DNA from: Octopus sinensis
Lineage: Eukaryota
Assembly: GCF_006345805.1 (NCBI RefSeq)
Contig: NC_042998.1
Coordinates: forward strand, 88,722,001 to 88,786,000
Direction of reading: 5' to 3'
DNA length: 64,000 nt
Translations under genes and position numbers: made by a program
The notes under the pieces: generated by a model
What the model saw: the letters and a program-made list of their open reading frames with translations, nothing else
The model's database searches: none
What the model was told of the DNA's origin: nothing
Part shown: positions 26,405 through 51,262 of the stretch, piece by piece
Position numbering within the stretch: position 1 is the stretch's first letter
How the letters are laid out: every line of letters starts with the position of its first letter

Positions 26405-29400
26405 TCATCATCATCATCATTATCATCATTTAGCGTCCGTTTTCCATGCTAGCATGGGTTGGACGGTTCTACTGGGGTCTGTGAAGCCAGAAGGCTTCAT
26501 CAGGCCCAGTCAAATCTGGCAGTGTTTCTACGGCTGGATGCCCTTCCTAACGCCAACCACTCCGTGAGTGTAGTGGGTGCTTTTTACGTGCCACCCGCAC
26601 TGGTGCCAGACAGAGCTGGCAAACGGCCACGAACGGATGGTGCTTTTTATGTGCCACCGGCACGAGGGCCAGGCGAGGCTGGCAACGGACACGAAACGGG
26701 GCGGTGCTGGCAACGGTCGCGAAACGGAAAGTTCTCTTACATGCCACCGGCACTGGTAACACATCTGCAATTTCCATTGATCGATTTCCATTGATCGATT
26801 TCGATTCTGATCCTCACTTGCCTCAATGGGTCTTCACAAGCAGAGTTTCGACATGCCACCGGCACTGGTAGCACATCCGCAATTTCCATTGATCGATTTC
26901 GATTCTGATCCTCACTTGCCTCAACACGTCTTCACAAGTAGAGTTTTGTGTCCCAAGAAGGGAAGGTATGCATACGTAGGCTGGCTCCATCCCATGTAGA
27001 AGGCCACGGGTTGTGGACTCACTTGTCCTGCCGGGTCTTCTCGCGCACAGCACACTTCCAGAGGTCTCGGTCTCTAGTCATTTCCTCAGTGAGACCTAAA
27101 GTTCGAAGGTCGTGCTTCACCACCTCGTCCCAGGTTTTCCTGGGTCTGCCTCTTCCACAGGTTCCCTCAACCGCTAGGGTGTGGCACTTTTTCACACAAC
27201 TATCTTCATCCATTCTCGCCACATGACCATACCAGCGCAAACGTCTCTCTTGCACACCACAACTGATGCTTCTTAGGTCCAGCTTTTCTCTCAAGGTACT
27301 TACACTCTGCCGAGTGTGAGTACCGGCATTACACATCCATCGGAGCATACTGGCTTCATTTCTAGCGAGCTTACGCATATCCTCAGCAGTCACGGCCCAT
27401 GTTTCACTGCCATGTAGCATGGCTGTTCGTACACACGCATCATACAGTCTGCCTTTCACTCTGTGCGAGAGGCCTTTTGTCACCAGCAGAGGTAAGAGCT
27501 CTCTGAACTTTGCCCAAGCTATTCTTACTCTAGCAGTTACACTTTCAGCACACCCACCCCCGCTGCTGACTTGGTCACCTAGGTAACGGAAACTATCAAC
27601 TATTTCTAGTTTTTCTCCCTGGAAAGTGACGGAAGTTGGTCTCAGAGCATTTTCAGTGTTTATTGTTCCTGAGCATCTGCCACATACAAAAACCATCTTC
27701 CTAGTTAGCCTTCCTTTGACATTGCTGCATCTCTTATGTGTCCATAGCTTACACTTGGTGCATCTTATAGAGTTTCTACCTACACCTTTTCTACAGATCG
27801 AGCAGGGCCATCTACCTGAAGGTGTTTGTGATTTGTCTACCTTCCTACTGATTACGACTTTGGTTTTAGCTAGATTGACTCTGAGGCCCTTCGATTCTAA
27901 TCCTTGTTTCCACACCTGAAACTTCTCCTCCAGTTCTGATAGCGACTCAGCAATTAGAGCAAGGTCATCAGCATAGAGGAGCTCCCAAGGGCATCCTGTC
28001 TTGAATTCCTCCGTTATTGCCTGGAGGACTATGATAAATAGGAGGGGGCTGAGTACTGAGCCTTGGTGGACCCCTACCTCTACCCGGAATTCTTCACTGT
28101 ACTCATTTCCAACCCTCACCCTACTAGCGGCGTCCCTATACATGGCCCGCACAGCTCTCACTAACCATTCATCTATCCCTAGTTTTCTCATTGCCCACCA
28201 GATAAGGGATCGGGGGACCCTGTCGAAGGCTTTCTCCATGTCAACAAAAGCCAGGTACAGGGGCTTATCTTTGGCTAGGTATTTCTCCTGCAGCTGCCTT
28301 ACCAGGAATATAGCATCAGTAGTACTTTTCCCTGGCACAAACCCAAACTGCATCTCATCTAAACTAACTCTCTCTCTAATTAGTTGGGCTATGACCCTCT
28401 CCGTAACCTTCATCACCTGGTCCAACAGCTTGATACCTCTGTAGTTATTTGTATCTAGGGCATCACCTTTACCTTTGTAGCAGTTGACTATTATACTGCT
28501 ACACCAGTCATTGGGTATGACCCCTTTGTGTATCACCTGATTAACTATATGGGTGACTAGGCTATAGCCGACACTACCAGACATTTTGAGCATCTCTGCA
28601 GTGATTCCTGATGGGCCTGGGGCTTTCCCTGTCTTCATGCTTCTAATTGCCTTAGCTACCACAGAACTATCAACTCGGATAGCTGGTCCCTCTGTTGGGT
28701 CAACATTCGGCAGACTCTCTTTATCCCATTCATTTTCTTCATTCAGCAACCTTTCATAGTGGCATCTCCAAACCTCTCTCTTCGCATCCTCATTTAGCGC
28801 AAGTGAACCATCTTCCATGCAAACACACTTCTCCCCTACCACATCACGATTCTCTCTCACACACTGTCTTGCAACACGAAACACCTCCAGTCTTTGGTCC
28901 TCACGGCGCAGAACATTGGCAAATTTTTTCTTATCTGCTTCCCCTCTGGCTAAATAAACCTGTCTCCTAGCTTCTCTTTTGGCAGTCTGATACAATTCCC
29001 TGCTACCCCCATTTTTCCAGACCTTCCAAGCCTGTCTCTTTTCTCTAATAGCCCTGTCTACAATATTGTTCCACCACCACGTTATTCTAGGTCGAGAGGG
29101 GACTTTGCACCAGCCACAGATCTGGTCAGTGGCTCTCAGCAGGTTGTCCCTTAGAAACGTCCAGCTGTCTTCTACCCCCTGTGATGCTCTATCCCCTTCT
29201 ACTTCGTCAGAGGCTTCAAGTAATATGTCCCTAAATCTCTGTCCATTTGCAGGATCTTTAAGCTTCCAGATCCTTCTTCTCCATATTTGTCGTCTTCTGG
29301 TTGTCCTCCTAGTCCTGATCCTAAAGTCACTAACTACCAGTCTATGTTGTGGGGTACATTCTTCACCTGGGAAGGTTTTGGCATTTATAAGCAGCCATCT

Positions 29401-30208
29401 CTCCCTTTGCCTTGTAAGGATGTAGTCAATTTGGCTGGTATGTTGGCCCGATTGGTAAGTGACTAGGTGGCTGGTAGGTTTCCTGAAGTTAGTGTTGCAA
29501 ATCATAAGATTATTTGCATCGCAGAACTCCAGCAGCCTGGTTCCCTCCTCGTTGCGGGAGCCATAGCCATAGCCTCCATGTACGCCATGGAAGCCCCCAG
29601 CATGTCGTCCAACGTGACCATTGAAGTCACCAGCCACAAAGATAAGGTCTCTGTCGTTCGTCAATGAGGTAGTCTGCAGTAGAGTGTCATAGAATCGGTC
29701 TTTCTGTCCATCGGGTAGCCCCGACTGAGGAGCATAGGCTGATATAATGGTTGCTAAACTATGATGAAGCACTAATCTAATCTTAAGTATTCTGTCACTT
29801 ACTCTGATTACCTCAATTACTTTATCTACCCATTTCTCAGCGATAAGTATACCCACGCCACCAACCCCGTCAGTGTTCCCTGCCCAGAAAATCTTGTACC
29901 TGCGTTCCTTGCCTGTGAGGAACCTAGCTGATCCTCCTCTCCACCTTATTTCTTGCATGCAACATATATCCACACATCTCCGTTCAAGCATCTCGACTAT
30001 CTCACCAGACCTACCTTTCAGAGTGCCAACGTTGAGGGTGCCAACCCTGAGGGTGTGGAAGGCATGGGCTCTAGAGACCCTGGGACGGTGGACAGTAGCT
30101 TCGTGTACCTGAAAAGAAAGCTCGCATTTGGCAGAATTCATGTGCAAGAAATGAAGTAGTAAAGTAGCCTTCAGTACAACCTGCATAACGCTAGCCTTTC
30201 ATATTTTG
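26405..30208 (-). mobile_element. Near full-length RTE-clade LINE (copy 1) with 3'UTR and (GAT)n tail
   Basis: Single intact ORF, ~600-nt 3'UTR and trinucleotide tail at 26405-26430. Only about 22 nt lie upstream of the ATG before a TA tract. Confidence 0.95.
27019..30186 (-). CDS. RTE ORF: AP endonuclease plus reverse transcriptase with internal PHD-type zinc finger (1055 aa)
   Basis: APE motifs TLNVGTL, CMQEIRW, SAYAP, GDFNGHVG, IDYIL, QHRLV. RT motifs KAPGPSG, NYRGIKLL, QFGF, DMEKAFD, GVHQGSVLSP, YADD, FRYLG. RTE C-terminus RLRWYGHV...GRPRKTW. Confidence 0.97.
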   Translation of the reverse strand: MQVVLKATLLLHFLHMNSAKCELSFQVHEATVHRPRVSRAHAFHTLRVGTLNVGTLKGRSGEIVEMLERRCVDICCMQEIRWRGGSARFLTGKERRYKIFWAGNTDGVGGVGILIAEKWVDKVIEVIRVSDRILKIRLVLHHSLATIISAYAPQSGLPDGQKDRFYDTLLQTTSLTNDRDLIFVAGDFNGHVGRHAGGFHGVHGGYGYGSRNEEGTRLLEFCDANNLMICNTNFRKPTSHLVTYQSGQHTSQIDYILTRQRERWLLINAKTFPGEECTPQHRLVVSDFRIRTRRTTRRRQIWRRRIWKLKDPANGQRFRDILLEASDEVEGDRASQGVEDSWTFLRDNLLRATDQICGWCKVPSRPRITWWWNNIVDRAIREKRQAWKVWKNGGSRELYQTAKREARRQVYLARGEADKKKFANVLRREDQRLEVFRVARQCVRENRDVVGEKCVCMEDGSLALNEDAKREVWRCHYERLLNEENEWDKESLPNVDPTEGPAIRVDSSVVAKAIRSMKTGKAPGPSGITAEMLKMSGSVGYSLVTHIVNQVIHKGVIPNDWCSSIIVNCYKGKGDALDTNNYRGIKLLDQVMKVTERVIAQLIRERVSLDEMQFGFVPGKSTTDAIFLVRQLQEKYLAKDKPLYLAFVDMEKAFDRVPRSLIWWAMRKLGIDEWLVRAVRAMYRDAASRVRVGNEYSEEFRVEVGVHQGSVLSPLLFIIVLQAITEEFKTGCPWELLYADDLALIAESLSELEEKFQVWKQGLESKGLRVNLAKTKVVISRKVDKSQTPSGRWPCSICRKGVGRNSIRCTKCKLWTHKRCSNVKGRLTRKMVFVCGRCSGTINTENALRPTSVTFQGEKLEIVDSFRYLGDQVSSGGGCAESVTARVRIAWAKFRELLPLLVTKGLSHRVKGRLYDACVRTAMLHGSETWAVTAEDMRKLARNEASMLRWMCNAGTHTRQSVSTLREKLDLRSISCGVQERRLRWYGHVARMDEDSCVKKCHTLAVEGTCGRGRPRKTWDEVVKHDLRTLGLTEEMTRDRDLWKCAVREKTRQDK

Positions 30209-30305
30209 CACATATATATATGTATATGTATATATATGTATATGTATATGTATATATATGTATATGTATATATATATATATGTATATATATGTATATATA
30301 TGTAT

Positions 30306-32236
30306 TAAAACAGCTGGCTATGTGGGCTATGCCATAGTCACCCGCATTGTAAACCAGGTAGTTCACAATGGAGTCATACCCAATGACTGGTGCAGCAGCA
30401 CCATAGTCAACTGCTACAAGGGTAAGGGTGATGCTCTAGATAGAAATAACTACAGAGGTATCAAACTGTTGGACCAGGTGATGAAGGTCTCAGAGAAGGT
30501 CATAACCAATCTCATTAGGGAGAGAATTTGTTTAGATGAAATGCAGTTCGGTTTTGTACCAGGTAGAAGCACCACTGATGCTATATTCCTGGTCCGACAA
30601 CTGCAGGAGAAGTACCTAGCTAAAGATAAACCCCTCTACATAGCTTTTGTAGACTTGGAGAAAGCCTTTGACAGGGTTCCCCGTTCCCTTATCTGGTGGT
30701 CGATGCGGAAACTAGAGATTGAAGAATGGCTAATAAGGGCTGTACAGGCTCTATACAGAGAGGCTGTCAGCAAGGTTAGGATTGGCAACGAATATAGTGA
30801 AGAATTCCGGGTAGAAGTAGGTGTGCACCAGGGCTCAGCCCTCAGTCCCCTTTTATTCATCATAGTCCTTCAGGCAATAACAGAGGAATTCAAAACAGGA
30901 TGCCCCTGGGAGCTCCTCTATGCCGATGACCTAGCTCTCATAGCAGAATCACTACCGGAACTAGAAGAGAAATTTCGGGTGTGGAAGCAAGGGTTGGAAT
31001 CAAAGGGCCTTAGAATAAATGTAGCAAAGACCAAAGTATTAGTAAGCAGCAAGAGGTACTCAGCACACATCCCCTCGGGTAGGTGGCCCTGCTCAACCTG
31101 TAGGAAAGGTACAGGTAGAAACTCCATAAGATGCACCCAATGTAAGTTATGGACACATAAGAGGTGCAGCAACATTAAAGGGAAATTAACAGATAAGATA
31201 GCTTTCATGTGCGGCAGATGCACAGGGACAATAGACACAACAGACACTCAGAAAACAGATTCCATCACACTCCAGGGAGAGAAACTAGAAGTAGTTGATA
31301 GTTTCCGCTACCTGGGTGACCAAGTTAGTAGCGGAGGTGGATGCACAGAGAGTATCACCACTAGAATACGAATAGCCTGGGCAAAGTTCAGAAAGCTCCT
31401 ACCCCTACTGGCAACAAAAGGTCTCTCCCTCAGAGCAAAAGGTAGATTGTATGATGCATGTGTGCGAACTGCCATGCTTCACGGTAATGAAACATGGGCT
31501 GTGACTGCAGAAGACATGCGTAGACTTGAAAGAAATGAAGCTAGCATGATCCGCTGGATGTGTAGTGTCAGTGTGCACGCAAAACAGAGTGTAAGTATCC
31601 TGAGAGAAATGCTGGATATAAGAAGCATCAGATGTGGTGTGCAAGAGCGACGCTTGCGATGGTATGGTCATGTGCTGCGGATGGATGAAGAGAGATGTGT
31701 GAAGAAGTGCCACTCCCAAACAGTTGAAGGTATCAGGGGGAGAGGTAGACCCAGGAAGACATGGGATGAGGTGGTCAAGCATGACCTCAGAGCATTGGGC
31801 CTCACTGAGGCAATGGCGAAGGACCGAGATCTCTGGAGATATGCTGTGACTACAAAGACCCGGGCTGCTTTCTGCAGCAATTCCACATACCCCCTACCCA
31901 TTCTAAGTACCCCGGATCCCCAAAGTACCCTGGATCCCCAAAGTACCCTGGATCCCCAAAGTACCCCGGACCTCGTTGCCCCCGTGCAGCTGACACGTTA
32001 AAATGCTCGAACCGATCGTGACGATGCCGGACCCTCCGGCCCCTGTGCAGGTGGCACGTAAAAAGCACCCAATCCACTCACGGAGTGGTTGGCGTTAGGA
32101 AGGGCATCCAGCCGTAGAAACTCTGCCAGATTCAGACTGGAGCCTGGAGCGGCCCCTGGCTTCCCAGACCCGGTCGAACCGTCCAACCCGTGCTAGCGCG
32201 GAAAGCGGACGTTAAACGATGATGATGATGATGATG
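30306..32236 (+). mobile_element. 5'-truncated RTE LINE (copy 2, different subfamily); RT frame open about 30306-32001
   Basis: RT motifs as in copy 1. The ORF-track start at 30220 is translated microsatellite. Ends ggacgttaaacgatgatgat. Confidence 0.95.
31905..31971 (+). repeat. 18-bp minisatellite, about 3.7 copies of aagtaccc(t/c)ggatcccca
   Basis: Direct reading. Encodes STPDPQ/STLDPQ in the read-through frame. Confidence 0.9.
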
Positions 32237-32324
32237 ATATGTATATATATGTATATATATGTATATGTATATATATGTATATATATGTATATGTATATAT
32301 ATGTATATATATGTATATGTATAT

Positions 32325-32358
<34 letters not shown>

Positions 32359-32360
32359 AT

Positions 32361-32634
32361 GTCTGCCAGCCTCGTCTGGCACCTGTGTTGGTGGCACATA
32401 AAAAACACCATCCGAGCGTGGCCGTCTGCCAGCCTCGTCTGGCACCTGTGTCGGTGGCACATAAAATCACCCACTACACTCTCGGAGTGGTTGGCGTTAG
32501 GAAGGGCATCCAGCTGTAGAAACACTGCCAGATCTGACTGGCCTGGTGTAGCTTTCGGGCTTGCCAGACCCCAGTTGAACCGTCCAACCCATGCTAGCAT
32601 GGAAAGCGGACGTTAAACGATGATGATGATGATG
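32361..32634 (+). mobile_element. Short RTE 3'UTR-only insertion
   Basis: Two 3'UTR modules, the conserved terminus and (GAT)n, flanked by TA tracts. Confidence 0.9.
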
Positions 32635-32686
32635 TATATATATATGTATATGTATATATATATGTATATATATATATGTATATATG

Positions 32687-32742
<56 letters not shown>

Positions 32743-32805
32743 GTATGTATATATATGTATATGTATGTATATATATATGTATATATATACATATATATAT
32801 ATGTG

Positions 32806-32849
<44 letters not shown>

Positions 32850-32853
32850 ATAC

Positions 32854-32929
<76 letters not shown>

Positions 32930-32982
32930 CTATATATATATATATATATATATCTATATATATATATATATATACTATACAT

Positions 32983-33015
<33 letters not shown>

Positions 33016-33050
33016 CATATATATATATATATTATATATACATATACATA

Positions 33051-33095
<45 letters not shown>

Positions 33096-33098
33096 ACT

Positions 33099-33144
<46 letters not shown>

Positions 33145-33165
33145 AATATATATATATATACATAT

Positions 33166-33198
<33 letters not shown>
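32635..33198. repeat. About 560-bp (TA)n-rich array
   Basis: Direct reading of the sequence. Confidence 0.95.
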
Positions 33199-33202
<4 letters not shown>

Positions 33203-35582
33203 ATCAAAGGAAGAATGGCTTCAAATTTTAAACTCAGGGCATGTATAATTAGTTATAAGTCGAGAAGAAGGCTCTAAACTTCATTAAAGGTACCGAAGGG
33301 TCAGGTGGTGGCATTAAACTTGGTGACAGGTTATTGTATATGTTAAAAGAAATAAACTTATTTTACTTTGTTTTGTCTTTAAAGAATTAAGTTGTCACCA
33401 GCTGTCTGTCTTTTCACCCTGAGACTTACATATTTGTGTAATTTTTTTTCTATTTGTACCTTTTGTGAGGCAAATTTGTGTGACTACAAATGAGTATATG
33501 TAAAACCTTAATATTTGAAAACTAATTGACCAGTTCTGCAAAGAAGATACTTGTTTGTCACCTGCTTTCTGTTCTGTTATTTAAAAATTATCCTTGCAGC
33601 CATGTTCCTCTTGTCTTGTTTTCTGTAAGCCCCCATCACTATGGATTACTGCAAACTTTTGCTAGCATCTGTTTATGTATGAAATTTTCTTTTCTTTTAT
33701 TTGTTATATTAAAGGTTTTTATATTTAGTTTTTAATTTATGTTTATTTTGTATTTAACTTGTAAATTAAATGGGATCTTTTGACAAAATAATTATTGATG
33801 TTATAATAACTACTATAATTTGCTACATTTTCTTTTAATTAATTACTATTGCTCTGCCAAGTGATCACATTCAATATTATTAATGAATTAGCTGGCAAAG
33901 AACAGATTCTTTGCCTGAACCACACCATTGCCATTATTGATTAATTGATCATTCTCTTCTTTCAAATTGATTTATGCATGTTACAAACATATTTTCTAGC
34001 AATTGAAACATTTATTAACAAGACACTATTTTATTGAATCAGATTACTTGAACTAATATTATTACATCATATATCTTCTTTTCTTTATTGTTTTTCATTT
34101 TCTCCTGTTATATTTTCTAGTATCATATTAATATTACTTGTAGATTCTTGATGCAGTAATATTATGATCATTTATAAAGAAATTATTTTTAGTCTCATTT
34201 TTTTGCTTCAAATTTTAAACTTTTGTAAAAAATTTTGCTTTATTTTAATGGGATACTATGATTAGGTTCTCTTTAAATGGTATGTTTTTTTTGTTTGTTT
34301 TTTTGTTTTAATGAAAGCTTGATTATTGATACATTTTTATCTTTTTGAAAACCAATATCATTTACTTGTACTGCTGTAAGACATTGAAGTAAAAGTACAA
34401 TAAGCTATTCAATGTCAGACTATATAGCTTCCCGCTGCTTCTTTCTTACTTTACATTTATTAAAATTGATTTGAAATTTGATGATCTTTGATAATTCTAT
34501 CTTCTATTCTTTGCTATTGGCAAATGGATCAGAATAGAATGGTGAATATTCTAGATTAGAACATCTTCGGTTTGAAGGGCTACATCCCTTATTACCTGAA
34601 ATAATCTAGCAAGTGACAATTAAGAATCCAACAGCAATAGAATTAATTGCATGGAATATAAGATGTGAGATAGTGTGATTATGGAATCTGTTATGATAAA
34701 AGTTTTGTTTGGAGGTTACAAATGATTGGGTTTGGTAACATTATTTGCACAATAATCGGAATAAATTTCCTTGTTTGGACATCGTTCTAGCTGCTGGTTT
34801 CAAATACTTGCATTCAGTTTCTGTCATGCTATCAGACTCATGAAACAAAATGAAATTACTATAAGTAAACAAAAATACAAAATACTATAAGCTATTCTTC
34901 TCTCTCTCACATATAATTAAGTACACAATATATATTTGTGGTGATAGTTTCTCTAATATTGATTTCTTGCTTTGGTACCAGGCAAAATGCTCTGGGAACT
35001 GATTTCCCACTCCACCACCATTATGTTATTAGCATATTATTTTATTGAACCTGAATGCATGAAAAGTTGACATTGACAGAATTTGAATCTGGAACACCAA
35101 AACTAAAATTATATCTTTTATTTTTCTACTGTCCTTACCATTCTCATGTCTACTAGCATCATTGTTGTCACCATCACCATGACCACCATTGTCATCATCA
35201 TTAATGCATTATGCTTTGCAATTTCAATTTTACATTCATTTCCGCTGTTTAGATACATCCTCATTGCTGCTATCTTTTGCATTGTTCTATTCTTATTCAT
35301 GTTCTCCATGATGATTACTTCATTTAAAATGTTCCTTAACCTTCTATTATTCCACTTAACATAGATAGATTTACTTCATATCCATTTACCAGATTGCCAC
35401 AATCTACTCTCAACATACACCTGTATTACCACACTAATTTAAGTGTTTCTTACCAACTTTGCCAGCATAACTGCTTTAACAACTTGTTATGTTTTTGCTC
35501 CATTTTAACATTTATTTTTAATGTTAGCTTGATTAAATGAGTTTGCATATAGATACCTTTCCATTAACACTTACACTTAGGA

Positions 35583-35792
35583 TAGGGTGGTGAGCTGGCA
35601 GAATCAATTCCGTACCAAGCTAGATGCTTAGTGACATTTTGCTTGTCTTTATGTTCTGAGTTCAAATCCTGCTGAAGTTGGCTTTGTTTTTCATCCTGAG
35701 GTTGATGAAATAAGCACAAATTGAGCACTGGGGTCAGTGTAGTTGACTTACACCTCCTCTGAAAATGCTGGCCTTGTGCCAAAATTTGAAAT
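35583..35792 (+). mobile_element. MetaSINE-like SINE
   Basis: ggtggtgagctggcagaatc...ttctgagttcaaatcc...gcactggggtc...gctggccttgtgccaaaatttgaaa. Flanked by a cacttacacttag / tacttacacttag direct repeat, a probable TSD. Confidence 0.8.
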
Positions 35793-36631
35793 AAATACTT
35801 ACACTTAGCCATAGGCTTATGCTTAAATCCACTGTGTATTTTGACACACTCATTAATTCTTCATATCTCTGTTTATTCTACTCCATGATTTAGGTACCAG
35901 ATTCTCTGGAAATTTTATTTATGATAGACTGGTTTTCTGCATGGAGTTGGTATTTATTTCTCATTCTCTTAATTACATAAAACTAGGGTACTACTTTCAT
36001 CAATTCCTTCAAGCTATGAGAAGCATTTACATTATGATATGTACAAATGTTGCATGTAAAAGCCAAAGCTCATCAATGTACATTATCTATTTTCAGCAGT
36101 GAAGATGTATAGTCTAAGCAATAAGGTGTTTGGCTCATGATCAGCTAGTAGAGGTGCATTATTGCTTTGAGCAAGACCATTTATTTAATGCTGCTCCAGT
36201 CTACTCAGTTGCAATGAGTACTAGCTTGGTGTTGGTGCAGCTCCTTCTCCCTCCATCTATTGCATTCTGCATATTATGCTTGGTCAAAGATGAGAAGGCT
36301 GAGAGGATGTCTGTATCTGCTCACAACTGCATAGGCATCTAAAACAATTAGTAAAAGCAGGGTACATGTTACCAAGTCATTCACACATATGTAACTCAAG
36401 TATCATTTATATCTCTGCATAATTGCTTTAGTTATTCATCAATACACTACCTTATAAGCTTGTATTTAGCAAGCTAAAAACAGCTCTGCATATTTTATAT
36501 ATGCGTCATATACCCTAACTTAAATATTTCAAAACAGTTTTGTCTCCTTAGTATCTGCAAGGATAAAACCATCTTCAAAAGAAGGTCAGAGTTAATTTTT
36601 GATTGCTCCCAGAAAAATAAGTATTATGTAA

Positions 36632-37285: not shown

Positions 37286-37296
37286 ATATATATATA

Positions 37297-37363
<67 letters not shown>

Positions 37364-37377
37364 ATATGTATATATAT

Positions 37378-38645
37378 TGAAGGTGTAGGTAGAAACTCTA
37401 TAAGATGTACCCAGTGTAAGCTATGGACACATAAGATGTGCAGCAACATCAAAGGAAAATTAACCAAGAAGATAGCTTTCGTGTGCGGCTGATGCACAGG
37501 GGCAATAGACACCACAGATACTCAGAAAACAGATTCCATCACACTCCAGGGGGAGAAACTAGAAGTAGTTGATAGTTTCTGCTACCTAGGTGACAAAGTT
37601 AGTAGTGGAGGTGGATGCTCAGAGAGTGTCACCACTAGAATATGAATAGCCTGGGCAAAGTTTAGAAAGCTTCTACCCCTACTGGTTGCAAAGGGTCTCT
37701 TGCTCAGAGTGAAAGGTAGATTGTATGATGCATGTGTGCAAACTGCCATGCTTCACTGTAGTGAAATATGGGCTGTGACTGCAGAGGACATGCGTAGGCT
37801 TGAAAGAAATGAAGCTAGAATGACCCGCTGGATGTGCAGTGTCAGTGTGCACACACGACAGAGTGTGAGCGCCCTGAGAGAAATGCTGGACATAAGAAGC
37901 ATTGGATGTGGTGTGCAAGAGAGACGTTTGTGCAGGTATGGTCATATACTACAGATGAATGAGGGGAGATGTGTGAAGAAGTGCCACTCCCAAAGAGTTG
38001 AAGGAATCCGGAGTAGAGGTAGACCCAGGAAGACATGCGATGAGGTGGTCAAGCATGACCTTCGAACGTTGGGCCTCACAGAGGCAATGACGAAAGCCCG
38101 AGATCTCTGGAGATATGCTGTGACTGCAAACACCCAACAAATGAAGTGAATTCATGGCTGTTTTCTGCACCAGCTTCACATAGCAGCCCCAGCCCATTTA
38201 GAGTGCCTTGGATCGCTGTGCTTACCTTGGATCATGGGGCGATCTGCTTTGCTTGAGGAGACCTGTTGAGTCAAGTACATCAACATCAAAATAAAAATCA
38301 AATGGAAATTGTAGTTGTGATACTTGTGCCAGTGGCACGTAAAAAGCACCATATGAACATGGCCGATGCCAGCGCCGCCTTGACTGGCTTCTGTGCCGGT
38401 GGCACGTAAAAAGCACCAACCGATCGTGGCCGTTGCCAGCCTCCCCTGGCACCTATACCAGTGGCATGTAAAAGGCACCCACTACACTCACAGAGTCATT
38501 GGCGTTATGAAGGGCATCCAGCTGTAGAAACACTACCAGATCAGACTGGAACCTGGTGCAGCCTCCTGGCTTCCCAGACTCCGGTCGAACTGTCCAACCC
38601 ATGCTAGCATGGAAAATGGACGTTAAACGATGATGATGATGATGA
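37378..38645 (+). mobile_element. 5'-truncated RTE LINE (copy 3, same subfamily as copy 2)
   Basis: GVGRNSIRCTQCKLWTHKMC...AVTANTQQMK* with premature stops, three 3'UTR modules and a (GAT)n tail. Confidence 0.93.
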
Positions 38646-39042: not shown

Positions 39043-39062
39043 ATATATATATATATATATAT

Positions 39063-40265: not shown

Positions 40266-40267
40266 GT

Positions 40268-40500: not shown

Positions 40501-40914
40501 CCAAGCACTGCTGTACACAGTGGAAGTGAATGAGAATGTTTAAACTTTGTGCACCTGCACAACAGAGTTTCTAACAGGTTGAGTGACCACATAGAGCAGT
40601 GCTTCTCAAAGTGTCCAGTATCACTCCCTGGGTGGCAGTGGATAATTTTGCTTGTGTACTGGAGACAATGAGGATGATTAGGAACAATTGAGGCATCTTT
40701 ATAGTTTTGTAGCCTTTTTTTTTCTCTTAAATATTAACTTTAAAAAAATGTCTAATATTTTGTTAGACTACTTGTTAGCCACAAGCACACCAATGACCAT
40801 AACAACAGTAATAGCATCAACAATAGTAACAGATTTGAAAATGTGAATAAGTAAAAACAAAACCACTCATGCATGTAAATTATATGCAATAAACAAAAAT
40901 ATAATTCAAAACAC

Positions 40915-41190
40915 GTATCATCATCATCATCATCATCATTTAACATTTGCCTTCCATGCTAGCATGGGTGGGATGGTCTTACAAGAGCTGGCCAGGCCAG
41001 GCCTGCACCAGACTTCTGTGACTGTTTTGGCAGGATTTTTGCTGCTGGATGCCCTTCCCTAACACCAACCACTCAGCAGAGTGGACATGATGCTTTTTAC
41101 ATAGCACAAGCACAAGTGAGGTCAGTTTTGGCAAGGTTTTTACAACTGTATGCCCTTCCGAACACCAACCACTTTACAGTGTGGACTGGG
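40915..41190 (-). mobile_element. RTE 3' end with an internal duplication of the ggatgcccttcc...ccaaccact block
   Basis: (CAT)n tail and ccatgctagcatgg. The block is repeated at about 41025-41095 and 41125-41195. Confidence 0.75.
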
Positions 41191-42292
41191 TGCTATATAT
41201 TTTTTACTAATAATTTTTGATGTTCCATATATTGGAGAAATGACTTATGTGCAAGTTCTTTTATTGGTGACCAATCTGTTAGCAAGAATTTGTTGTGTAT
41301 TTGATTTTGTTTTGTTGAATTGTAGCAAAAGGGTGTTGAAAAAATTTTAGTAAAGGAAAGGGAAGAATAGTTAAGAAAAAGAGTTTGTGAAGCACTAGTA
41401 TAAAGGATTCCATGCACTTGAATTGGCTTATCTCCCTATGATCCAACAATGAACCCTCTATGCAGTTTCACTATCAGTTAGAAGTTACATTTGAATATCC
41501 CTACTGTCTTAAAAAAGGCAAGACCACTTCTGTTTTTACCTTGGACATTTTCAATGTCTTTGACCACCAGGACAGCTTCTGTTGATCTATATTTACTGGG
41601 GGCTGATTCTCTATAGCATTAATCAATTTTACTTACTTTTTGAGAAGTTAAATAGAATTATTGTTTTATTTGGGAAAAAAATGATTTTGAGAAGTCCATG
41701 AAAAATGGGTCTTCTAGGTGATTTTTCAATTTGCTAAATTTTTTTCTTAAATCTCATCCAACTGTCTTAAAAAAAGGAAAATACTTTGGATAATTGAGTC
41801 CTAGGTACCATATCTAAATACAAGACAAAGTGGCCAAGATTGGAACACCTTTCATCAACCAAGGATGGTTTGGAGATAGACAACATTAGGAGAATCATTG
41901 ATTGTTTCTAAATGAAAACTTCTAAGTGAAGTTGCTTATCTATCACTGCTGCTGATCTATTATCATGTGTATCAGTAATTTTTTGTCACAGTTCCCTGTT
42001 GAGTTGATAGGGACTCTACTTGATTCATATTCTGTTGACTTAGCCGTGCATTCATCAATCCTCCCTACCATGACATACTTCTTGTTACTTATAGTCAATC
42101 ATATTCCTCTACGGATGATTCATTTTTTCTCTCTTACTTAATTCTCTGTGCATGTATATTATCCAGACATTACCTACACATCTTGTGCCAGACTTACACT
42201 GCTCAAATGAACAGGAACTGTGAAGGATTCTCTATAGAGGGCATGATTATTTTGTCTCCTTCAATGGTACCAACAATCAGTCATTGCATATA

Positions 42293-43091
42293 CAGGGTGT
42301 TTGAGCTAAATTTGATGGGGTTTTTTTATGTCTCTTTTTTTTTCAGAAACAGCTTGATGTCAACAGTGTTGGAGAGCAGAAAGATTAAAGGTGTGGTTGA
42401 GAAAAATTTAGCTGACATGGAGGACTGGAAGCTTTTCAAATATTGGAAAATAGTTACTTGGGTATTAAAATGCTGACACCATGACTGTGAATCTGTGGCC
42501 AGCAGGAAGGGATACAGTGGGCATTCTGACTGCACCTGCACACTGGAATTCATCCTCACATCTTTGAACAGGGCCTTAGACTCAATTCAGAAAACTGTGT
42601 AAAGTTGTTGGAGACTGTGGTCAATCTTGGCTGGAGAGGCTTGCTGCTGGAAGGTCACATGTGTGGCAGCAGGATTTGGCTACTTGCCATATCTCTGGAA
42701 AGAGTCAGACATGGTCGTCTGAGAATTTTTATGACTTCACCAGCTCCAATTTCTGGTCTCTTAATTTCCCCAATTGTAATCCTATGGATTACTATGTCTG
42801 AGGTACAGTTGAGAAAGACATCAAACCACTCTGCCTGCAACACCAAGGCCAAACTAGTGGCCAAGATCAAGGCGGTATGTGAAGATCTTCCCAGGAACAT
42901 AATGAGAAATGCATGCACCTGGTTCTGGAGTTGTGGAAGCTGAAGATGGTTACTTCAAATAAACTGTTATCTCCCAGCCATAATCTAGTTGATATTTTTG
43001 ATTTTTTTTTTAAATACTTTTATTTTTGAATGGGGTATTGTGTTTTTTTTTTCTTTTTATGCAAACTGTCAAATTTTGTGCAACCATCTTG
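42293..43091 (+). mobile_element. Internally deleted maT (DD37D) DNA transposon
   Basis: TA-flanked imperfect TIRs (cagggtgtttgagctaaatttga versus rc caagatggttgcacaaaatttga). QQD-x37-D in VWQQDLATCH...NCNPMDYYV. Confidence 0.8.
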
Positions 43092-43239
43092 TATCAAAAA
43101 CACTGTATTGCAATGCTACTCTTCCCTATTTATGAGCAACATACGGCTAAAATGTTGCAGTTCACAACCACTACAACGTAATGATACATCCATCTCTAGA
43201 AGCTGCAACTTCTATGAATAATTACAGACCATCTACAAG

Positions 43240-43590
43240 GTACAAGGGCAGTTCATAATGAAGCACTCATCAAATATTTGGAACCTTGCTGCTGCTACAC
43301 AGTGAAACATTTTAGAGCACATCTGCTTGATTGGCAAAACTTTCACTAACTTCTATTGGTTATGACCACTAGAACACAAATGCACTCTTTCTCTCCATTA
43401 TCTCTCCTACTGCCATACCATGTTTTATGTTCCTTTAAGCTATTGCACTACCTTCCGCACCCACCAAGATCCCTCTAATGCACCAATATTTCCCCTCTCA
43501 TCATCAGTACTGTTTAATTTTCCAAACACTATTTAAGTCTTCCTTCCCAGAATTGCAATCTTCTGGAACTCCTCTTTCATCTTTATATAC
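43240..43590 (+). mobile_element. Highly decayed CR1/L2 3' ORF remnant
   Basis: tcttccttcccagaattgcaatcttctggaactcc resembles the SFFPR...WNSLP terminal motif. Confidence 0.35.
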
Positions 43591-46500
43591 TTGTTAGCAC
43601 CTCAGTAAAAATACACACACATACATGACATTTCCTAATGCATATTAAGCATTGAGATATCACATGAAATTTATCTGTGGTAATGAAGATGAGAAATTAT
43701 TTCAGCTTATCCAGTTTAACTCAGCATTTAGTTTGTTTTAAGTAATAACCTTCAGATGGTCATAAAGCACCGCATTGTGTGTTCATATATACAAATGTGT
43801 GTATGTTCACATATACATGTGTGTGTGTGAGTGTGAGTGTGTTTGTGTGCTCTCAGTTACCCACCCCTACTACAGATGTATATACAAACTCTTAAATATT
43901 GCAGATACTAACTTTAATTATAAGGGAATTATATGATGAATAGACTTTGTGTGTGTGTGTGTACATGTATGCACATACACATGCATACATATATATGTGT
44001 GTGTGTGTGTGTTTATGTACGTATGTATATAGATTTATGTGCCTGCATATATATGCGTGTATATATATATCTATATACATAGTTGTGTATGTGTGTTATA
44101 AAACTTTTTATAAGGTTATGATGTATCTTCTAGCATTGTGTTCTTCTTTTGTCTCTAAAACCCTTTGGATGAATGATAAAGAAAAGCATGTTTAGTTGTT
44201 TTTTCATGCTGTTGGTGAGAAAAAAAACAAACACCTGTTTTGGATTTTTTCATTTGGAAGCTCTTTGTCTTACACCCACAGCAGACGATGAGCCATTCTA
44301 TCAGCTGTGGAACCCAGCTGACACCCTAGGAGAGGGGGTTAATAGGTAAAACACATCTTTATTACACCTGATAATCCACTCCTTTTCATTGTCAATTAAA
44401 ATCAAATTAGCACAAAGAGTAGGGGCTTTCTTTTTATTTTATTTTTTTTATTACAATATTCGAAAGAAAAGTCATAGCTTGTGAAAAGGTTTGATCCTTA
44501 CCACAAACAACAGATGATACCATCTGCCAGAGGTTGTTTTTGTTTAGCTTTGGCGTTTATATTCAGTATTGGCAAACATGTGATTTCCATGGCTTTCTTC
44601 TTGATTTATCCTATGTGCCATTGGTTACTGCATTCATTTTCTACCTACCTTATGAATAATTAAGAAGCTTTGTATCTATAGACAGCTTATGTTAATGGGA
44701 TTGTGGGGTTTTTATAGGTAACTGTGTAAATGAAACTATTCATTTAGTTACTAGGTTTGTCTACAGAGACAACAACAGCTTTGCTGTGAATGAGCTACTG
44801 CGATGTTGCATTTAATATTGCAAAGAAATGCTTTGCTGATATATTGTTGTTACGCTATTTTATCCAGCAGTGCTCATAAGTAGTGTGTAGTCTTTCATCC
44901 ATGTGTCTCTATTACTAGTTAATAACTTAGAAACATACTATTAATATTTTGAAATATTCTAGGTCTCTTTATGAAACTGAAGAACCACATGCACTGGAAA
45001 GTTACAGAACTTACAATGCTCATTCTGCATTAACCTTGCCATTTTTAAAAACTAATTTAAACTTTAATAATTATACTATGTTGATGTTATGCAAATCTGA
45101 CATATTCATGTACACTTAAGAAATTATACGTTTTATACAAATTATAGCAGAATAAGCTTTACTTACCAGTTTGAATTTCTTGGTTAAATTTATTGAATCT
45201 CCATTTCTCCATGTAATATATATCTCTACAAAGATTGCTTAAATTGAGAGATGAAACAAGGCTATATCTTTCCTTTTGTCTTAAATTCCATGAAAGCATC
45301 TTTGTATGTTAATTTCTTTTATTTGTTGTACAAGCAATTACTTTCCATTTTGAATCCTTAGTCTGATATTTGTCTTCATTTGCTTTCCTTTTTATCAATG
45401 TGTTAAATCTTCCATTTTGTTTAATTTGAAAATTAGCTTTATTTTGGTGAAATAATTTTAGGTAATATTTTTATTTAATAGTTTGGTGTTGTTGGTTAAA
45501 AGTTGTTTTTAACTTTGTATAAACTATAAAATATAACTTCTTTTTCAGCAGACAACTTAATTTCTTAGTCACTAGGTAAAGAAACAGACAGATGCTGTTG
45601 TTTCAAACTTCTTCACCAGAATGGCTTCTTTGTGGATTGCCACTTGTTCTCAGTAAAGTTATGGAAGGCAGATGGTGTAAAAAATATTGTGTAATTGTTG
45701 AATAAAGTGTTTTATTTCAATGCAGGAACAATGTGAAAAGTTGAGCAGATTTTGTTGTAACAGTATTCATGTATTGTTTCTCAATTTTGCTCCTGTAGCC
45801 AATTTTCTCCCTCCTCAAAATGCATTAGAACCCACCTGCTCATAGCATCATAAGGTCTGGAAATCTTTGTCTATTATGCATATGACAATAAGGTGGATTT
45901 ACAAAGTATTGTTCTCAAGAAATTTGCATAATAAGAGCTATCGAACAGGGGCTTCGAGTATGTTGGCCTACCCTTTGCATGAAAAGGCAGCTTTTCTAGT
46001 GTTTTTGTTTCGTTTTTCTCAGATTAACCAAAGCCTAGCTCAAAACTCAACAACAAAATTAATAAAACAAAAAGCATACAAGAATAAAGACTTAAACACC
46101 TCAGTGGCCTATTTGCTTAATTTCTTCTGAATAAACTTTTTCTTCCACTTTTTTAGATTTGTTTATTCATCACTTATCTTTACTGTTGCCATATAGCCAA
46201 CCTTATATGACTGTATTTGAAAAACCATGATGGCAGTAACAGAGCTTATTTGCTGAAAGTTTTCAAAAATTTATATCCATACACTGTTAGTATTTGACTT
46301 GAAATTATATGCAATCTTCTGCAATTCAGCTATATCATTTAATAAGATAGTCTTCAGTTTTACTGCCTTTTCTTTCATCAAAACGAATGAGAAAATGCTA
46401 TTAGGAATTTTGTCCTGTACATTTAATATTCTAATAGCTTAAAACAATACACAAAGGGGTTTTTACTTTGTATTTGGTTTCAATATAAATCAATTTAGAC

Positions 46501-47561
46501 CCTTGTACAAACTCTTGACATCCAGTATCTCTTGGTCAGATATCTTTCCTAAATAAACATGGTGCTTTTATTTTTTTCTCAATGTGTCAAAATAAAGCAA
46601 ACTATCTTTTAATTTCAGAGAAACATTGTTAATATCTTGCAGTATTGAAACTCATAACCACTCAATCAACCAGAACTTTCATGTTTAAATTGGCATGTCT
46701 TCAACTATTGCTTCAATAAAATGAACTCAGAATAATATCTGCTTTTACATTTTGTCTATTTTGTTTCTAAACATTTTATATGAATTATATTAGTTACATA
46801 ACTTTGATCAGTCTTGTGTTCTTTGATTGTCTCCCTTGATATTTTTTTCTTCTGCCATTGTCATATTACATCTCAGCTGCTTTAAAAGTATTTAAAAAGA
46901 TTCTTTTGTCTTCTTGGAGGCCATCTGTTGTTGACTTGCATGCACTAATGTCTGCTGTTTAGAACTTAGTGAGTTAATTACTCTTAGCCTTTTAAATGCA
47001 ACAACTTAAACAAGATAACATAAGAGAAAGCTTGTCAAACCTTTTGTTGAATTAGATTAAAAAGCAGGTGATGGAATGACCCATGAGATTAGTGTTATTG
47101 CTTTATTGCCCTCAGTTATCACCTTTCTGGAATGCATAAATGATTTCTTATATGAAGCTTCAGCATTCTGAGAAAGAGATATTAGAAGTCATGATGTTCA
47201 TGTGTTCTCCAGATCTGTCTGTTATTTTTCTTTCATTCATAAATTGTCTTGCTATCATTTAAAAGTAGTAAATGACATTCTAATTCAACTAGATTTACAT
47301 CGAGTTTATCTTTTGTTTGTAAACTTTTGTAATATATCACTCTTAAACAGTGGAAATATAAATGTATATAAAAATTTATATTCCATATTTTGATATTAAT
47401 ATACCTACTTTTAATATGTTAGATTTGTTAAAGAAAGTTTTAGAATTAACCATTTCTTTTTTACTTACAGTAGATATTTTCAGTTGGATAACTCCAAATA
47501 CACCTCAAATTTATTTGTCTTATTCAGAGCATTTCTTACTGTTTTGCTTTTGGAAATTTTA

Positions 47562-47865
47562 GAATTTCTGTATTTTGGGGATGAGAAATTATGTACATTA
47601 TTTACAATGGATGGGTAGGTGTGCTCACCTTGTTTGTTGTTAGCACAATATTTTAGCTGATGTACTCTCCAGTCTTCATCAGGTGTTCTGATCGGCTGTC
47701 ATCAGCAACATACCTTAGGAATGAGAACAGTGTAATCTGTTAGTCAAATAGAAGATTAGGTTCAAAATTCCACCAGAACACTGGAGAGTACAACAGCTGA
47801 AACATTATGATGACAACAAACAAAGTGAGGACACCTACCCGTCTATTGTAAATAATTTAAAATTT
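47562..47865. mobile_element. Foldback element (arms about 47588-47690 and 47774-47863) with a degenerate hammerhead-like core; probable Penelope-derived inverted pLTR
   Basis: Arms are reverse complements. The minus strand of the left arm has CTGATGA, and the right arm retains GAAAC at the equivalent spacing. Confidence 0.55.
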
Positions 47866-47917
47866 CCATTTGGAGTTTTAGTTGAGGATTCATTTATTAT
47901 TTATGTTTATTTGAAAT

Positions 47918-48210
47918 GTGAAGACACATGGCCTAGTGGTTAGGGTGTTGCACTTGCTATCATAAGATTGTGGTTTCAATTCCTAGACTGATGATATATT
48001 GTGTTCTTTAGCAAAATACCTTATTTTACATTGCTCAAGTCCACTCAGTTGTAAATAGATAACTCCACAACTGAGTGGTGTCCCATTCAGTAGAGAATGT
48101 TGGCCTACCCCACCTAACCTGCAGAGTGGCATCATTTGAAAGCTACAACAATGCAAGGAAGCACATTGTGATGAGCAGTATATAACCACATCTGATATTC
48201 TGGATGATAT
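47918..48210 (+). mobile_element. tRNA-derived SINE
   Basis: Head gacacatggcctagtggttagggtgttg...gtggtttcaattcctagac, same family as 12980-13225. Confidence 0.7.
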
Positions 48211-49772
48211 GATGATATTTGAAACAGTCACAAAGTCTGTTTTTGAATCATTTTCTAGTTATCTTTCCTTTCTGATAAAACTACTTCAACATTTCCATTT
48301 CCATCAAGTTTAGAAAAACATACTTCATAACTTGAAATGTGTTTAGTTGCTTGGTCCAACAGGAAGGGAGTGAGCCTTTGGCCTTTGCAGATCCTCCTAG
48401 ATGAGTTAGATTGATGCCATTAATGTCCTTAAACTTTTGTAAATCAACACTTGCGGAAAAAAATATGAGAAGGAAGGGAATAATTTGTGTGGCACTTAGA
48501 TTCCTTTGATAACATAGGTGTTGAGAGCAGGAGAGATAAGTGGATCAGGAGTATTTGAGCGGAGGTAATATAAGCCTAGCGAGCTCCAAGGGGGCAGAGG
48601 CTCCTATAGTAACAGTAGAAAAAGCAGAGAGGAGACAGCATGCCCATTGCTGGTGACTGGAATATCTCTGTTAGTGATTTTATGCCATCTATGATGGGTA
48701 GCCCTTTTCTAGATGCAGTCTAGGATGCCTGTCTGTATGTACAGCAGTAGTACCATCCCAGATGTGAAAGCAATACACCATTGGGGGCCCTCAGTTCGAA
48801 TTTGTAGAATATCAATAATTGTTGGGGACTGAAGTATCTTCTGGCCTTATATAGAAGGGACAGTCTTTGGGATGTAGTCCTAGCTATATTAAGGATGTTT
48901 CACATTGAAGATAGATTCAGTGCTGTTTTGTGAATGTGCATATTGTTTCTAATTTGCAAAACTCTAGTAGTTTTGATTCAGTGAACTTGCTTGTACGGCT
49001 TATCAAGTAAACTGACCTTTTAGATTCAACTTGCCTAAGACTCATTCTGGCTCTGTGATAGAAATTTTTGTTTAAAGTGATCTGAATTAAAATCTTCCAT
49101 CAAAATTTCATGCTAATTGAAGATCTGAACTCTAGCTTAATAATGATAAAGTTATTTTACTAACTTCTTAGTTATATTAAAAGTTAATTGAATCATAGGC
49201 AGTGTATTTCAATGGAAATATGGTAACAAAAGAGTTAATAAGGTTGTATTAGTTGTCATTCTTAGAGTTTCTGTTTGAATATGATATTGTGGAAGATTTT
49301 GAGTTTATTTCATGGTAACCATGAGTGAAACATTAAAACCAACAGATTGAAATCTGTTTCTGTAAATATGATTGTCTAGAAGAATGTTGCACTTTTGACA
49401 ACTAATTTATAGTGAAACAGTAATTTTGTTTCATAACTAGCAAATTTACTACACAACTCGTTTATGCACAGATAGAATGTAATAAAATAGTTTAATAACA
49501 ACTGGGAAAAAATAAAGAGGCATAATCTAATAGCAGCAATTGACTGAAGTTCAGAAACCATTGAATGATTTCAAATATGTATGAGAGTGTTTATATAAAA
49601 GAATTAAATCAATTACTTGCAGTGAAACATATTGAAGTGATTAATAAAGAAAAGGGTTAAATGCAGTGAATGGATACAAAATACATTCTGTTGGTAACTG
49701 GATTAAGTCAATCCAATCAATTTCTGTTTTAATAAATTAGCTATGTAGCTGATAAGCTAATAGAGAAGTGAA

Positions 49773-49829
49773 AATAGTTTTAGGAATTTCCAAAAGTACA
49801 ATAGTTTTAGGAATTTCCAAAAGTACAAT
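49773..49829. repeat. 27-bp perfect tandem duplication
   Basis: aatagttttaggaatttccaaaagtac occurs twice in succession. Confidence 0.9.
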
Positions 49830-50115
49830 TGGAATAAAATAACTGTGTCAGTAGTGTGACATAATTTCTGAATACAAATACTTCTAACTTTACCATTTAT
49901 CATTTTCAATTTAGAAAAGAATTTATTAAAATTAATTTGTCTTGCAACTTATCAAAAGACATCAAGAGTAAGACATTCATTCTCTTAAAGTAAAACAAAT
50001 TTATATAGTGATCTTATATTGATTGTTCTTCAGGGATTTCCACATCTGAAAATGGTAAACAAATTTAATTTATAGATGTTAAAGTCCTGCATTTTAAATT
50101 ATATGCAGTTAAAAG

Positions 50116-50147
<32 letters not shown>

Positions 50148-50309
50148 TATCAGAAGTGCCTGTGTGGTAACTAGCTTGCTTACCAACCACATAGTTCTGG
50201 GTTCAGTTTCACTGTGTAGCACCTTGGGCACTATAACCTTAGGCTGATCAAAGCCTTATGAGTGGATTTGGTAGATTGAAACTGAGAGAATCCTGTCATA
50301 TATACATAT

Positions 50310-51000
50310 ATCATCATCATCATTTAATGTCCGCTTTCCATGCTAGCATGGGTTGGATGATTTGTGCACCAGGCTCCAATCTTGATCTGGTGGAGTTTCT
50401 ACACCTGGATGCCCTTCCTAATGCCAACCACTCCGAGATCGTAGTGGGTGCTTTTATGTGCCACCGGCACAAGGGCCAGTCAGGCAGTACTGGCAACGGC
50501 CTCACTCAAATGGTGTTTTTTACGTGTCACCTGCACAGGAGCCAGTCCAGCGGCACTGGCAATGACCTCGTTTGAATGTTTTTTCATGTGCCACCAGCAC
50601 AAGTGCCAGTAACGTGACACTGGTAATGATCATGCTCAAATGGTGCTTTTTATGTGCCACCGGCACGGGAGCCAGTTAGCTGCTCTGGCAACGATCACGC
50701 TTGGATGGTGCTCTTAGCGCTTCACTAGCACAGATGCCAGTCATCGAATTTGATTTCGATTTCAATTTCACTTGCCTCAACAGGTCTTCGCAAGCAGAGT
50801 TTAGTGTCCAATGAAGGAACAGTACATATAAGTGGGCTGGTTACACCCCTGGCATAGGCCACAAGGTTATGGTCTCACTTGGCTTGCCAAGTCTTCTCAA
50901 GCACAGCATATTTCCAAAAGTCTCGGTCACTAGTCATTGCCTCAGTGAGGCCTAATGTTCGAAGGTCATGCTTCACCACTTCATCCCAGGTCTTCCACAG
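50310..51000 (-). mobile_element. RTE 3' fragment (copy 4) with five 3'UTR modules
   Basis: ORF end ([17 protein letters not shown]), the 3'UTR module array at 50447-50735 and a (CAT)n tail. Confidence 0.9.
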
Positions 51001-51008
51001 AAATTGAT

Positions 51009-51262
51009 CCCTGTGCCAGTGGCACATAAAAAGCACCATCTGAATGTGGCTGATGCCAGTGCCACCTTGACTGGCTTCTGTGCCAGTGGCACGTAAAAAG
51101 CACCCACTACACTCTCGGAGTGGTTGGTGTTAGGAAGAGCATCAAGCTGTTGAAACACTGCCAGATCAGACTGGAGCCTGGTGCAACCTCCTGTCTTCCC
51201 AGACCCCAGCTGAACCGTCCAACTCATGCCAACATGGAAAACAGACATTAAACGATGATGAT
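51009..51262 (+). mobile_element. RTE 3'UTR-only fragment, head-to-head with copy 4
   Basis: Begins at a module (cctgtgccagtggcacataaaaagcacc) and ends gacattaaacgatgatgatg. Confidence 0.88.

Follow-up and report, generated by a model that had tools for sequence, protein, structure and literature searches.

A tandemly repeated 25-nt motif, plausibly a pseudoknot, in the 3' untranslated region of a young octopus LINE

A 64,000-nt stretch of AT-rich animal DNA from Octopus sinensis (contig NC_042998.1, positions 88,722,001 to 88,786,000; hereafter the window) carries copies of a long interspersed nuclear element (LINE) with a single open reading frame (ORF) that includes a PHD-like finger. The 3' untranslated region (3'UTR) of this LINE contains a 25-nt motif, the core module, usually in tandem. 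Our preferred reading, to which we assign a probability of about 0.4, is that the modules are tandem duplicates of one motif, that the last copy is likely a pseudoknot which, with neighboring hairpins, would aid recognition of the RNA by the element's own protein, and that the upstream copies are likely dispensable products of slippage. Constraint on the stems of the terminal module and decay of the upstream copies argue for it. Our data support a structured RNA under selection in the terminal module, and they make a pseudoknot plausible as a predicted fold.

On the sense strand, the core offers interleaved complementarity between GTGC and GCAC (stem 1) and between GGTG and CACC (stem 2), of 4–5 and 4 bp, with a single nucleotide, N, as loop 1 and 7–8 nt as loop 3, which is workable for an H-type pseudoknot. 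Spanning 4 bp with a single nucleotide comes close to what is sterically possible, a strain that would be eased if the junction pair opens. Scanning 2.72 Gb of genome returned 62,283 exact matches to a 20-mer of the core and none to the reversed pattern. From about 1.8 Mb of sampled sequence, 800 kb of it unselected, we collected 366 distinct elements, anchored on a conserved downstream block that is independent of the module, together with 726 modules, of which the 666 with at most five differences were aligned.

Terminal modules were compared on trees in four set-ups (114 or 154 rows, with the tree drawn from the tail alone or from tail plus module). At the level of clades, stem 1 changed once (C to T, keeping a G-U pair), stem 2 never, and the stem of an adjoining GCCAG/CTGGC hairpin zero to two times, versus three to five changes at N, three to four in loop 3 and 37–45 in the hairpin loop, spacer and linker. 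Paired sites changed less than loops with all stems taken together (p ≤ 0.007), and the hairpin stem was significant by itself (p 0.0003–0.045). Across the 13 stem sites of the core, internal modules show 12 clade-level changes, several of which break pairs, versus one in terminal modules.

A first-pass annotation of the window had proposed a structured pseudoknot RNA. The structured part stands, as terminal stems change far less than loops and linkers between subfamilies, but covariation of stem 2 is absent both locally and genome-wide. Its description of an expandable cassette is overstated, as upstream copies decay and the unit also expands at the DNA level.

The element and its module arrays

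From 5' to 3', the 3'UTR comprises the array, the terminal core, a short hairpin, the conserved GGAAGGGCATCC block, further hairpins, the terminal stem-loop and the (TGA)n tail. The following features were identified in the window, the two ORFs by ORF and domain search:

17613..17637, minus strand: core of an older sister family, GGTGCCAC type; block at 17561-17596
26434..26466, minus strand: 3'-terminal stem-loop before the (TGA)n tail
26525..26560, minus strand: conserved GGAAGGGCATCC block; other animals have it immediately downstream of twister-P1, ~200 nt upstream of an RTE-type endonuclease ORF, or both
26558..26570, minus strand: short CACTC/GAGTG hairpin (predicted) between terminal core and block
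26576..26600, minus strand: terminal core module, N=G; predicted H-type pseudoknot
26605..26620, minus strand: GCCAG/CTGGC hairpin 5' of the terminal core; likely a diverged core copy
26639..26663, minus strand: internal core module, N=C
26741..26753, minus strand: decayed half-module, stem-1 hairpin only
26853..26865, minus strand: decayed half-module, stem-1 hairpin only, without the CACC strand
27019..30198, minus strand: intact single ORF of the youngest subfamily, with APE endonuclease, reverse transcriptase and PHD-like finger; 5'UTR truncated against a (TA)n tract
30310..32001, plus strand: 5'-truncated reverse transcriptase ORF of a second subfamily, head to head with the 27019..30198 copy
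31984..32008, plus strand: strongly decayed internal core
32045..32069, plus strand: terminal core, N=A; block at 32085-32120
32385..32409, plus strand: internal core, GTGT type, N=T; the copy is truncated inside the array
32448..32471, plus strand: terminal core, GTGT type; block at 32487-32522
38326..38479, plus strand: three-module array (38326-38350; 38393-38417, N=C; 38455-38479) after the reverse transcriptase C-terminus; block at 38495-38530
50447..50666, minus strand: four-module array (50447-50470, 50512-50536, 50575-50600, 50642-50666); block at 50396-50431
51013..51104, plus strand: two-module array (51013-51037, 51080-51104) with CpG-decayed stem 2; block at 51120-51155

All seven modules for which the first-pass annotation gave a position and a state of N are as it described (G, four times C, A and T), including N=C at 50447-50470 (minus) and 50642-50666 (minus). 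The GTGT at 32385 and 32448 is likewise real and is a fixed subfamily trait, present in 21/21 modules of that type. A GGTG/CATT pairing proposed near 50577 is possible but needs two G-U pairs, and the CACC strand is eroded in that module type. The GCCAG hairpin, with a loop of 6–11 nt, does follow the core in internal modules, but behind the terminal core come another hairpin and the conserved block.

Modules of the young family are spaced 60–69 nt apart in 356 of 386 intervals. The 95 complete arrays contain one module in 2 cases, two in 52, three in 20, four in 6, five in 12, and six, seven and nine in one case each, with 44 of the 52 two-module arrays coming from one deliberately oversampled young subfamily. 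The youngest copies invariably have two: all 36 scorable full-length copies (3/39 were not scored) carry two intact modules and two half-modules. Other subfamilies center on three or on five to seven modules with some spread, and module copy number is mainly a subfamily trait. In contigs from four sequencing runs of three organisms, only N and one CpG vary at 5% or more inside the terminal core among the rows listed.

The copy at 27019-30198 (minus) encodes an intact frame of 1059 aa with an APE endonuclease (Exo_endo_phos), a reverse transcriptase (RT; RVT_1) and a PHD-like finger, and several truncated relatives of it lie in the window. The finger, at residues ~776–819 of a 1036-aa query, is inserted C-terminal to the RT domain and is common to many relatives; PHD-bearing relatives are found at 49–60% identity, and proteins with this set of domains are widespread, 1,414 among 8,000 scored reaching E ≤ 1e-50. 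The subfamily is very young, since 38 of 40 scored matches to the 5' 201 bp of this ORF, the window copy included, show 100% identity over that length. Upstream of the ORF of one full-length copy (L280; L-numbers label loci or contigs outside the window), the longest open frame within 2.5 kb is 115 aa. Full-length 5'UTRs (L280, L262, L266, L283) are pyrimidine-rich and built of tandem monomers of ~590–620 nt, presumably in the manner of rodent L1 promoters, and an Rfam search of the L280 5'UTR gave no matches.

Window copies and full-length copies carry a (TGA)n microsatellite 3' tail, a trait of the RTE clade, in which microsatellites are called common in PMC9115989. An RTE-type label fits the architecture, on the basis of the single ORF and C-terminal motifs. 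The family itself is probably catalogued already; a literature search that left Repbase, Dfam and subscription journals outside its scope found no description of the motif, and its sequence words matched unrelated papers only.

Tail blocks occur at a density of ~96 per 800 kb of unselected sequence. Many copies adjoin (TA)n-type microsatellites at one or both ends (30212-30305, 32237-32360, 26323-26405), an adjacency that suggests a target preference, and two copies lie head to head across a single tract of this type in the window. A decayed tRNA-type short interspersed nuclear element (SINE) at 50155-50300 (plus), with a stretch that we take to be CORE-like, adjoins the tail of the 50447-50666 element. 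Two element tails at 51160-51415, separated by a short TA/TGA tract, point toward each other and form a long imperfect inverted repeat with weak Rfam miRNA matches. Across positions 24000-53000 an Rfam search yielded 45 weak matches, mostly miRNA models on TA repeats, and none at the gathering score.

Pseudoknot, hairpin and the origin of the array

When a 45-nt segment was shuffled 3000 times, interleaved complementarity of 4+4 bp appeared in 3 cases, and it appeared in 12 of 400 shuffles of the 600-nt UTR; because all copies descend from one ancestor, it counts as one event. The best positive hint of a knot comes from a switch at the stem junction. The older sister family, with 1,631 exact genome matches, has C in place of G at this position: the G pairs in stem 1 (5+4 bp) and the C in stem 2 (4+5 bp), so that nine predicted pairs are kept. 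Stacking energy is -17.7 kcal/mol in both families, and the best nested fold of the isolated core reaches -6.1 to -8.6; with a loop cost of 7–10 kcal/mol, the predicted knot would win only narrowly. A loop-3 G that is paired only in the sister family is replaced in 196/1,827 (10.7%) of its older copies versus 11,585/73,868 (15.7%) in the younger family. A further junction state, T-A, is found in a core-like stretch followed by the block and a tail of 79–86% identity on L376, a single animal-like contig with a non-cephalopod label in a bacterial bin.

The sister family also bears on how the array arose. It repeats the core mostly at 24–28-nt spacing without the hairpin (30 of 49 intervals), and in 11 of 51 of its elements the ORF C-terminus is still present, 100–650 nt upstream of the block. 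In a third form (L038), core and block together make a 99-nt repeat unit, which at L038:7450-8150 builds a minisatellite of ~10 copies seeded by the LINE's 3'UTR; repeat units of 26, 62–67 and 99 nt are all present. In older subfamilies, the GCCAG hairpin matches the core with an identity of 0.43 at a shift of 26, versus 0.23±0.05 at other shifts (66 modules). From these alignments we infer that a 26-nt core was duplicated, that one copy diverged into the GCCAG hairpin and that the dimer became the 62–67-nt unit, whose internal repeat would promote slippage. Extra copies would then arise by slippage on this repeat and subsequently decay. Elsewhere in the genome (L384:1086-4500), a minisatellite with a 66-nt unit and an eroded stem 2 runs to at least 51.9 copies, which are 94% identical, so array expansion needs no RNA function.

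Several observations weigh against our preferred reading. The shift-26 signal is gone in younger subfamilies (0.26 versus 0.23), and the L376 stretch, a single copy, has no 5' strand for stem 1. In the tree tests, stems 1 and 2 together gave p 0.04–0.24, significant in one of four set-ups, and stem 2 alone p 0.09–0.40, with module detection favoring intact cores. Covariation of GGTG with CACC, which the first-pass annotation had put forward as a test of its own claim, was not significant: no stem-1 or stem-2 pair covaries, and stem 2 ranks 77–296 of 496 column pairs among 587 distinct modules. Genome-wide, stem-2 double mutants at three pairs number only 105, 26 and 123, and their rate of pairing matches the prediction for independent transitions (62 versus 56 of 100, 13 versus 12.5 of 26, and for A-T ~67 versus 66 of 100, tallied by hand on the listed 100, 26 and 100 rows); the power of this test is low because masters barely vary. 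Nested-only folding in context gives stem 1 a mean probability of 0.13–0.16, since the near-palindromic arms pair between modules, and the CACC of one module is able to pair with the GGTG of the next. Finally, N=A or G occurs mostly where an upstream CCT or CACC offers a rival hairpin.

The variable N had itself been taken as evidence against a plain hairpin. C and its CpG decay products dominate at this position, and A and G are true subfamily states; N=T and a following A are mostly CpG decay. Variation at N excludes the fifth C-G pair of a triloop hairpin, but any N is compatible with a stem-1 hairpin that has a 5-nt loop, which fits equally well, so this variation is indecisive on the pseudoknot.

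The main rival to a pseudoknot is built on hairpins alone: the core would be a stem-1 hairpin, or a near-palindrome pairing in nested registers between modules, and the array a slippage-prone minisatellite under mild selection for hairpins. The lack of stem-2 covariation, the dominance of nested folds in arrays, the stem-2-eroded 66-nt minisatellite and the existence of all three unit lengths count in its favor, as does the youngest master, which retains two half-modules with stem 1 alone. It sits poorly with zero clade-level changes in stem 2 of terminal modules while N and the loop-3 G change, with nine pairs preserved across the junction switch, and with the rarity of compact 4+4 complementarity in local shuffles. 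We regard it as unlikely, though a serious contender.

Recognition by the element's protein and other functions

To our knowledge, outside L1 and a few fish LINEs, little is known about how an APE-type LINE chooses its own RNA. In our preferred reading, the terminal core would fold into a small pseudoknot, and this predicted knot, together with the block and the terminal stem-loop, would be read by the element's own protein, by analogy with A-clade R2; loading of the ORF protein was also among the roles that the first-pass annotation suggested. According to PMC12180492 and PMC12222951, A-clade R2 proteins bind a 3'UTR pseudoknot. The two systems would share a pseudoknot near the 3' end of a non-long-terminal-repeat retrotransposon RNA, followed by a terminal stem, and a protein with an extra zinc-binding domain. 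R2 has one pseudoknot, at most ~65 nt from the 3' end and proven by cryo-electron microscopy and rescue mutants, whereas the octopus knot is predicted only, lies ~150 nt from the tail, is repeated and belongs to an APE-type LINE. Counting against a need for the knot, the terminal stem-loop beside the tail may suffice for recognition.

In the youngest copy, the first intact core lies ~355 nt past the stop codon. A frameshift or readthrough pseudoknot was rejected because cores lie 100–650 nt after the stop and not within or just behind the translated frame. Luteoviral frameshift pseudoknots and preQ1-I riboswitches have 4–5-bp stems, a loop 1 of 1–2 nt and an A-rich loop 3, as in the core; the octopus core differs from them in its position, which leaves it no recoding role, and has no Rfam match.

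The 5' ends of truncated copies were mapped onto partner elements, with 115 of 230 placed and 73 having no longer partner. The 74 junctions in internal modules are spread evenly across the module (chi-square p 0.14). If the modules stalled the element's RT and so yielded short 5'-truncated copies, as the first-pass annotation suggested, junctions would fall at the module 3' edge, but only 7 of 74 do, versus 15 expected. Truncation is more frequent in the 500 nt upstream of the block (54 events in 14,098 nt, 3.8/kb) than further 5' (3 in 3,373 nt, 0.9/kb; 61 unselected elements), which would suit stalling; a falling truncation hazard is usual for LINEs, however, and the UTR events are inflated by alignment breaks between subfamilies. 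We consider stalling very improbable.

The same junctions speak to another suggested role, in which the modules would be tandem XRN1-resistant RNAs (xrRNAs) that protect the 3' part of the transcript. Halted RNAs would start just 5' of the core, and copies show no such preference (12 of 74 junctions versus 10 expected). The likeness to flaviviral xrRNAs, namely tandem structured units in a 3'UTR, is one of layout only. According to PMC8374639, xrRNAs need a 15–16-nt ring around the 5' end, which in flaviviruses is built on a three-way junction, whereas the 25-nt two-stem core has neither such a junction nor, judged from secondary structure only, room for the ring. Protection from XRN1 is improbable in the extreme.

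The conserved block and its twister neighborhood

A pattern scan for the block found at least 122 metagenome stretches and 10 stretches of genome bins, nearly all of them animal-like repeats. Rfam twister-P1 matches end within a few bases of the block in 7/20 and 3/12 loci scanned, which were picked partly by eye; the best match beside the block has E 1.3e-12, and all are below the gathering score. In seven loci (L125, L138, L198, L374, L375, L379, L382) an endonuclease ORF related to that of the octopus LINE starts downstream of the block. Twister-P1 adjacency and these ORFs mark the block as an RTE 5'UTR motif elsewhere, whereas in the octopus LINE it stands at the 3' end. Because the block is a 5'UTR motif in other animals, the LINE lineage probably captured a bipartite non-autonomous element, a 5'UTR piece plus a 3' tail, as its 3'UTR. 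Of 219 tails, 44 are without the block, and among these no recurrent family of block-less tails was apparent by eye. Viral contigs gave one chance-looking block match, no core and no relative of the ORF. The bacterial-bin contigs L374-L383 carry animal-type retrotransposon ORFs, twister ribozymes and tails, and these bins probably hold eukaryotic contamination.

According to Kojima 2018 (PMC5786205), SINEs contain bipartite RTE pieces, and conserved RTE 5'UTR pieces are speculated to bind transcriptional regulators. The non-autonomous bipartite LINEs and SINE bodies described there, which are RTE-derived, likewise pair a conserved segment of an RTE 5'UTR with an RTE 3' tail; in the octopus, such a piece serves an autonomous LINE as its 3'UTR. 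Zero matches for the block words AAGGGCAT and GGGCATCC in the one supplement file of PMC5786205 set the block apart from the Ceph-domain RTE piece of that study.

This setting raises a further alternative, in which the motif would function as DNA or through a site recognized by its sequence, such as a promoter, an enhancer or a host-protein site from an RTE 5'UTR, the stems being paired words of the TGCCA/TGGCA type. The adjacent block in 5'UTRs elsewhere and the speculation on regulator binding in PMC5786205 are consistent with it, and loop 3 is nearly as conserved as the stems, which suggests sequence reading. Most of the changes fixed in terminal stems, however, preserve pairing as G-U on the sense strand, and the 6–11-nt hairpin loop is unusually variable for a spaced DNA site. 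We judge this alternative improbable.

Ahead of the block, the core fills the slot of the twister, and it has three short words in common with the twisters of L379, L382 and L383, in the same order (an 8-nt P4 start, an A-rich linker and a purine-rich 3' strand). It might derive from a twister core that was remodelled and lost catalysis; such an origin is compatible with pseudoknot and recognition or with a hairpin or DNA function. Against this, local alignment of the core to four twisters fell short of significance (the lowest p in 32 tests being 0.03), neither the conserved L4 loop nor the cleavage-site UAA is present, no Rfam ribozyme model matched in 24000-53000, and a twister core pattern had zero matches in the genome. 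Set beside twister-P1 at RTE 5' ends (Perere-3, PMC8501958; RF03160), the octopus core shares the slot and, through other animals, the downstream block, but differs in lacking the twister fold and catalytic loop, in its 3' location and in the absence of a fixed cut site among copy ends. We hold such a descent to be quite unlikely.

The block may itself be a pseudoknot, as its sequence (26525-26560 with 26513-26520, minus) offers a GGTTGG/CCAGCC stem, a GGCA that can pair with TGCY 8–13 nt downstream and an A-rich GTARAAA linker like loop 3 of the core. The TGCY word recurs in L374, L375, L382, L383, L198 and L111, yet in 19/104 metagenome rows overall, in a search that fixed one strand. A third pseudoknot-like match, at the terminal stem-loop, was treated as chance, because L376 retains the nested stem-loop but not this match. 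An abundant animal repeat, seen in L114, L135, L139 and many other loci of the L101-L222 set, starts sharply ~35 nt before the block, and its CCTTC can pair with the block's GAAGG across a small hairpin; this repeat is a candidate uncatalogued structured RNA with a precise 5' end.

In the most far-reaching scenario, the LINE would have captured an RTE 5'UTR piece, remodelled the twister slot into a 25-nt junction-flipping pseudoknot and multiplied it as a multivalent loading platform for its PHD-bearing RT, which would have helped it reach hundreds of thousands of copies. We think this decidedly unlikely.

If the predicted fold fails, the finding shrinks to a minisatellite seed carried by a LINE. 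As it stands, a predicted knot of 25 nt with natural variants, including the junction flip, G-U variants and arrays of one to nine copies, offers a cheap test system. A 5'UTR-type block in a 3'UTR would, if true, reverse the known route from LINE to bipartite SINE, and the block points to an uncatalogued conserved RNA motif beside the twister ribozymes of animal RTEs.

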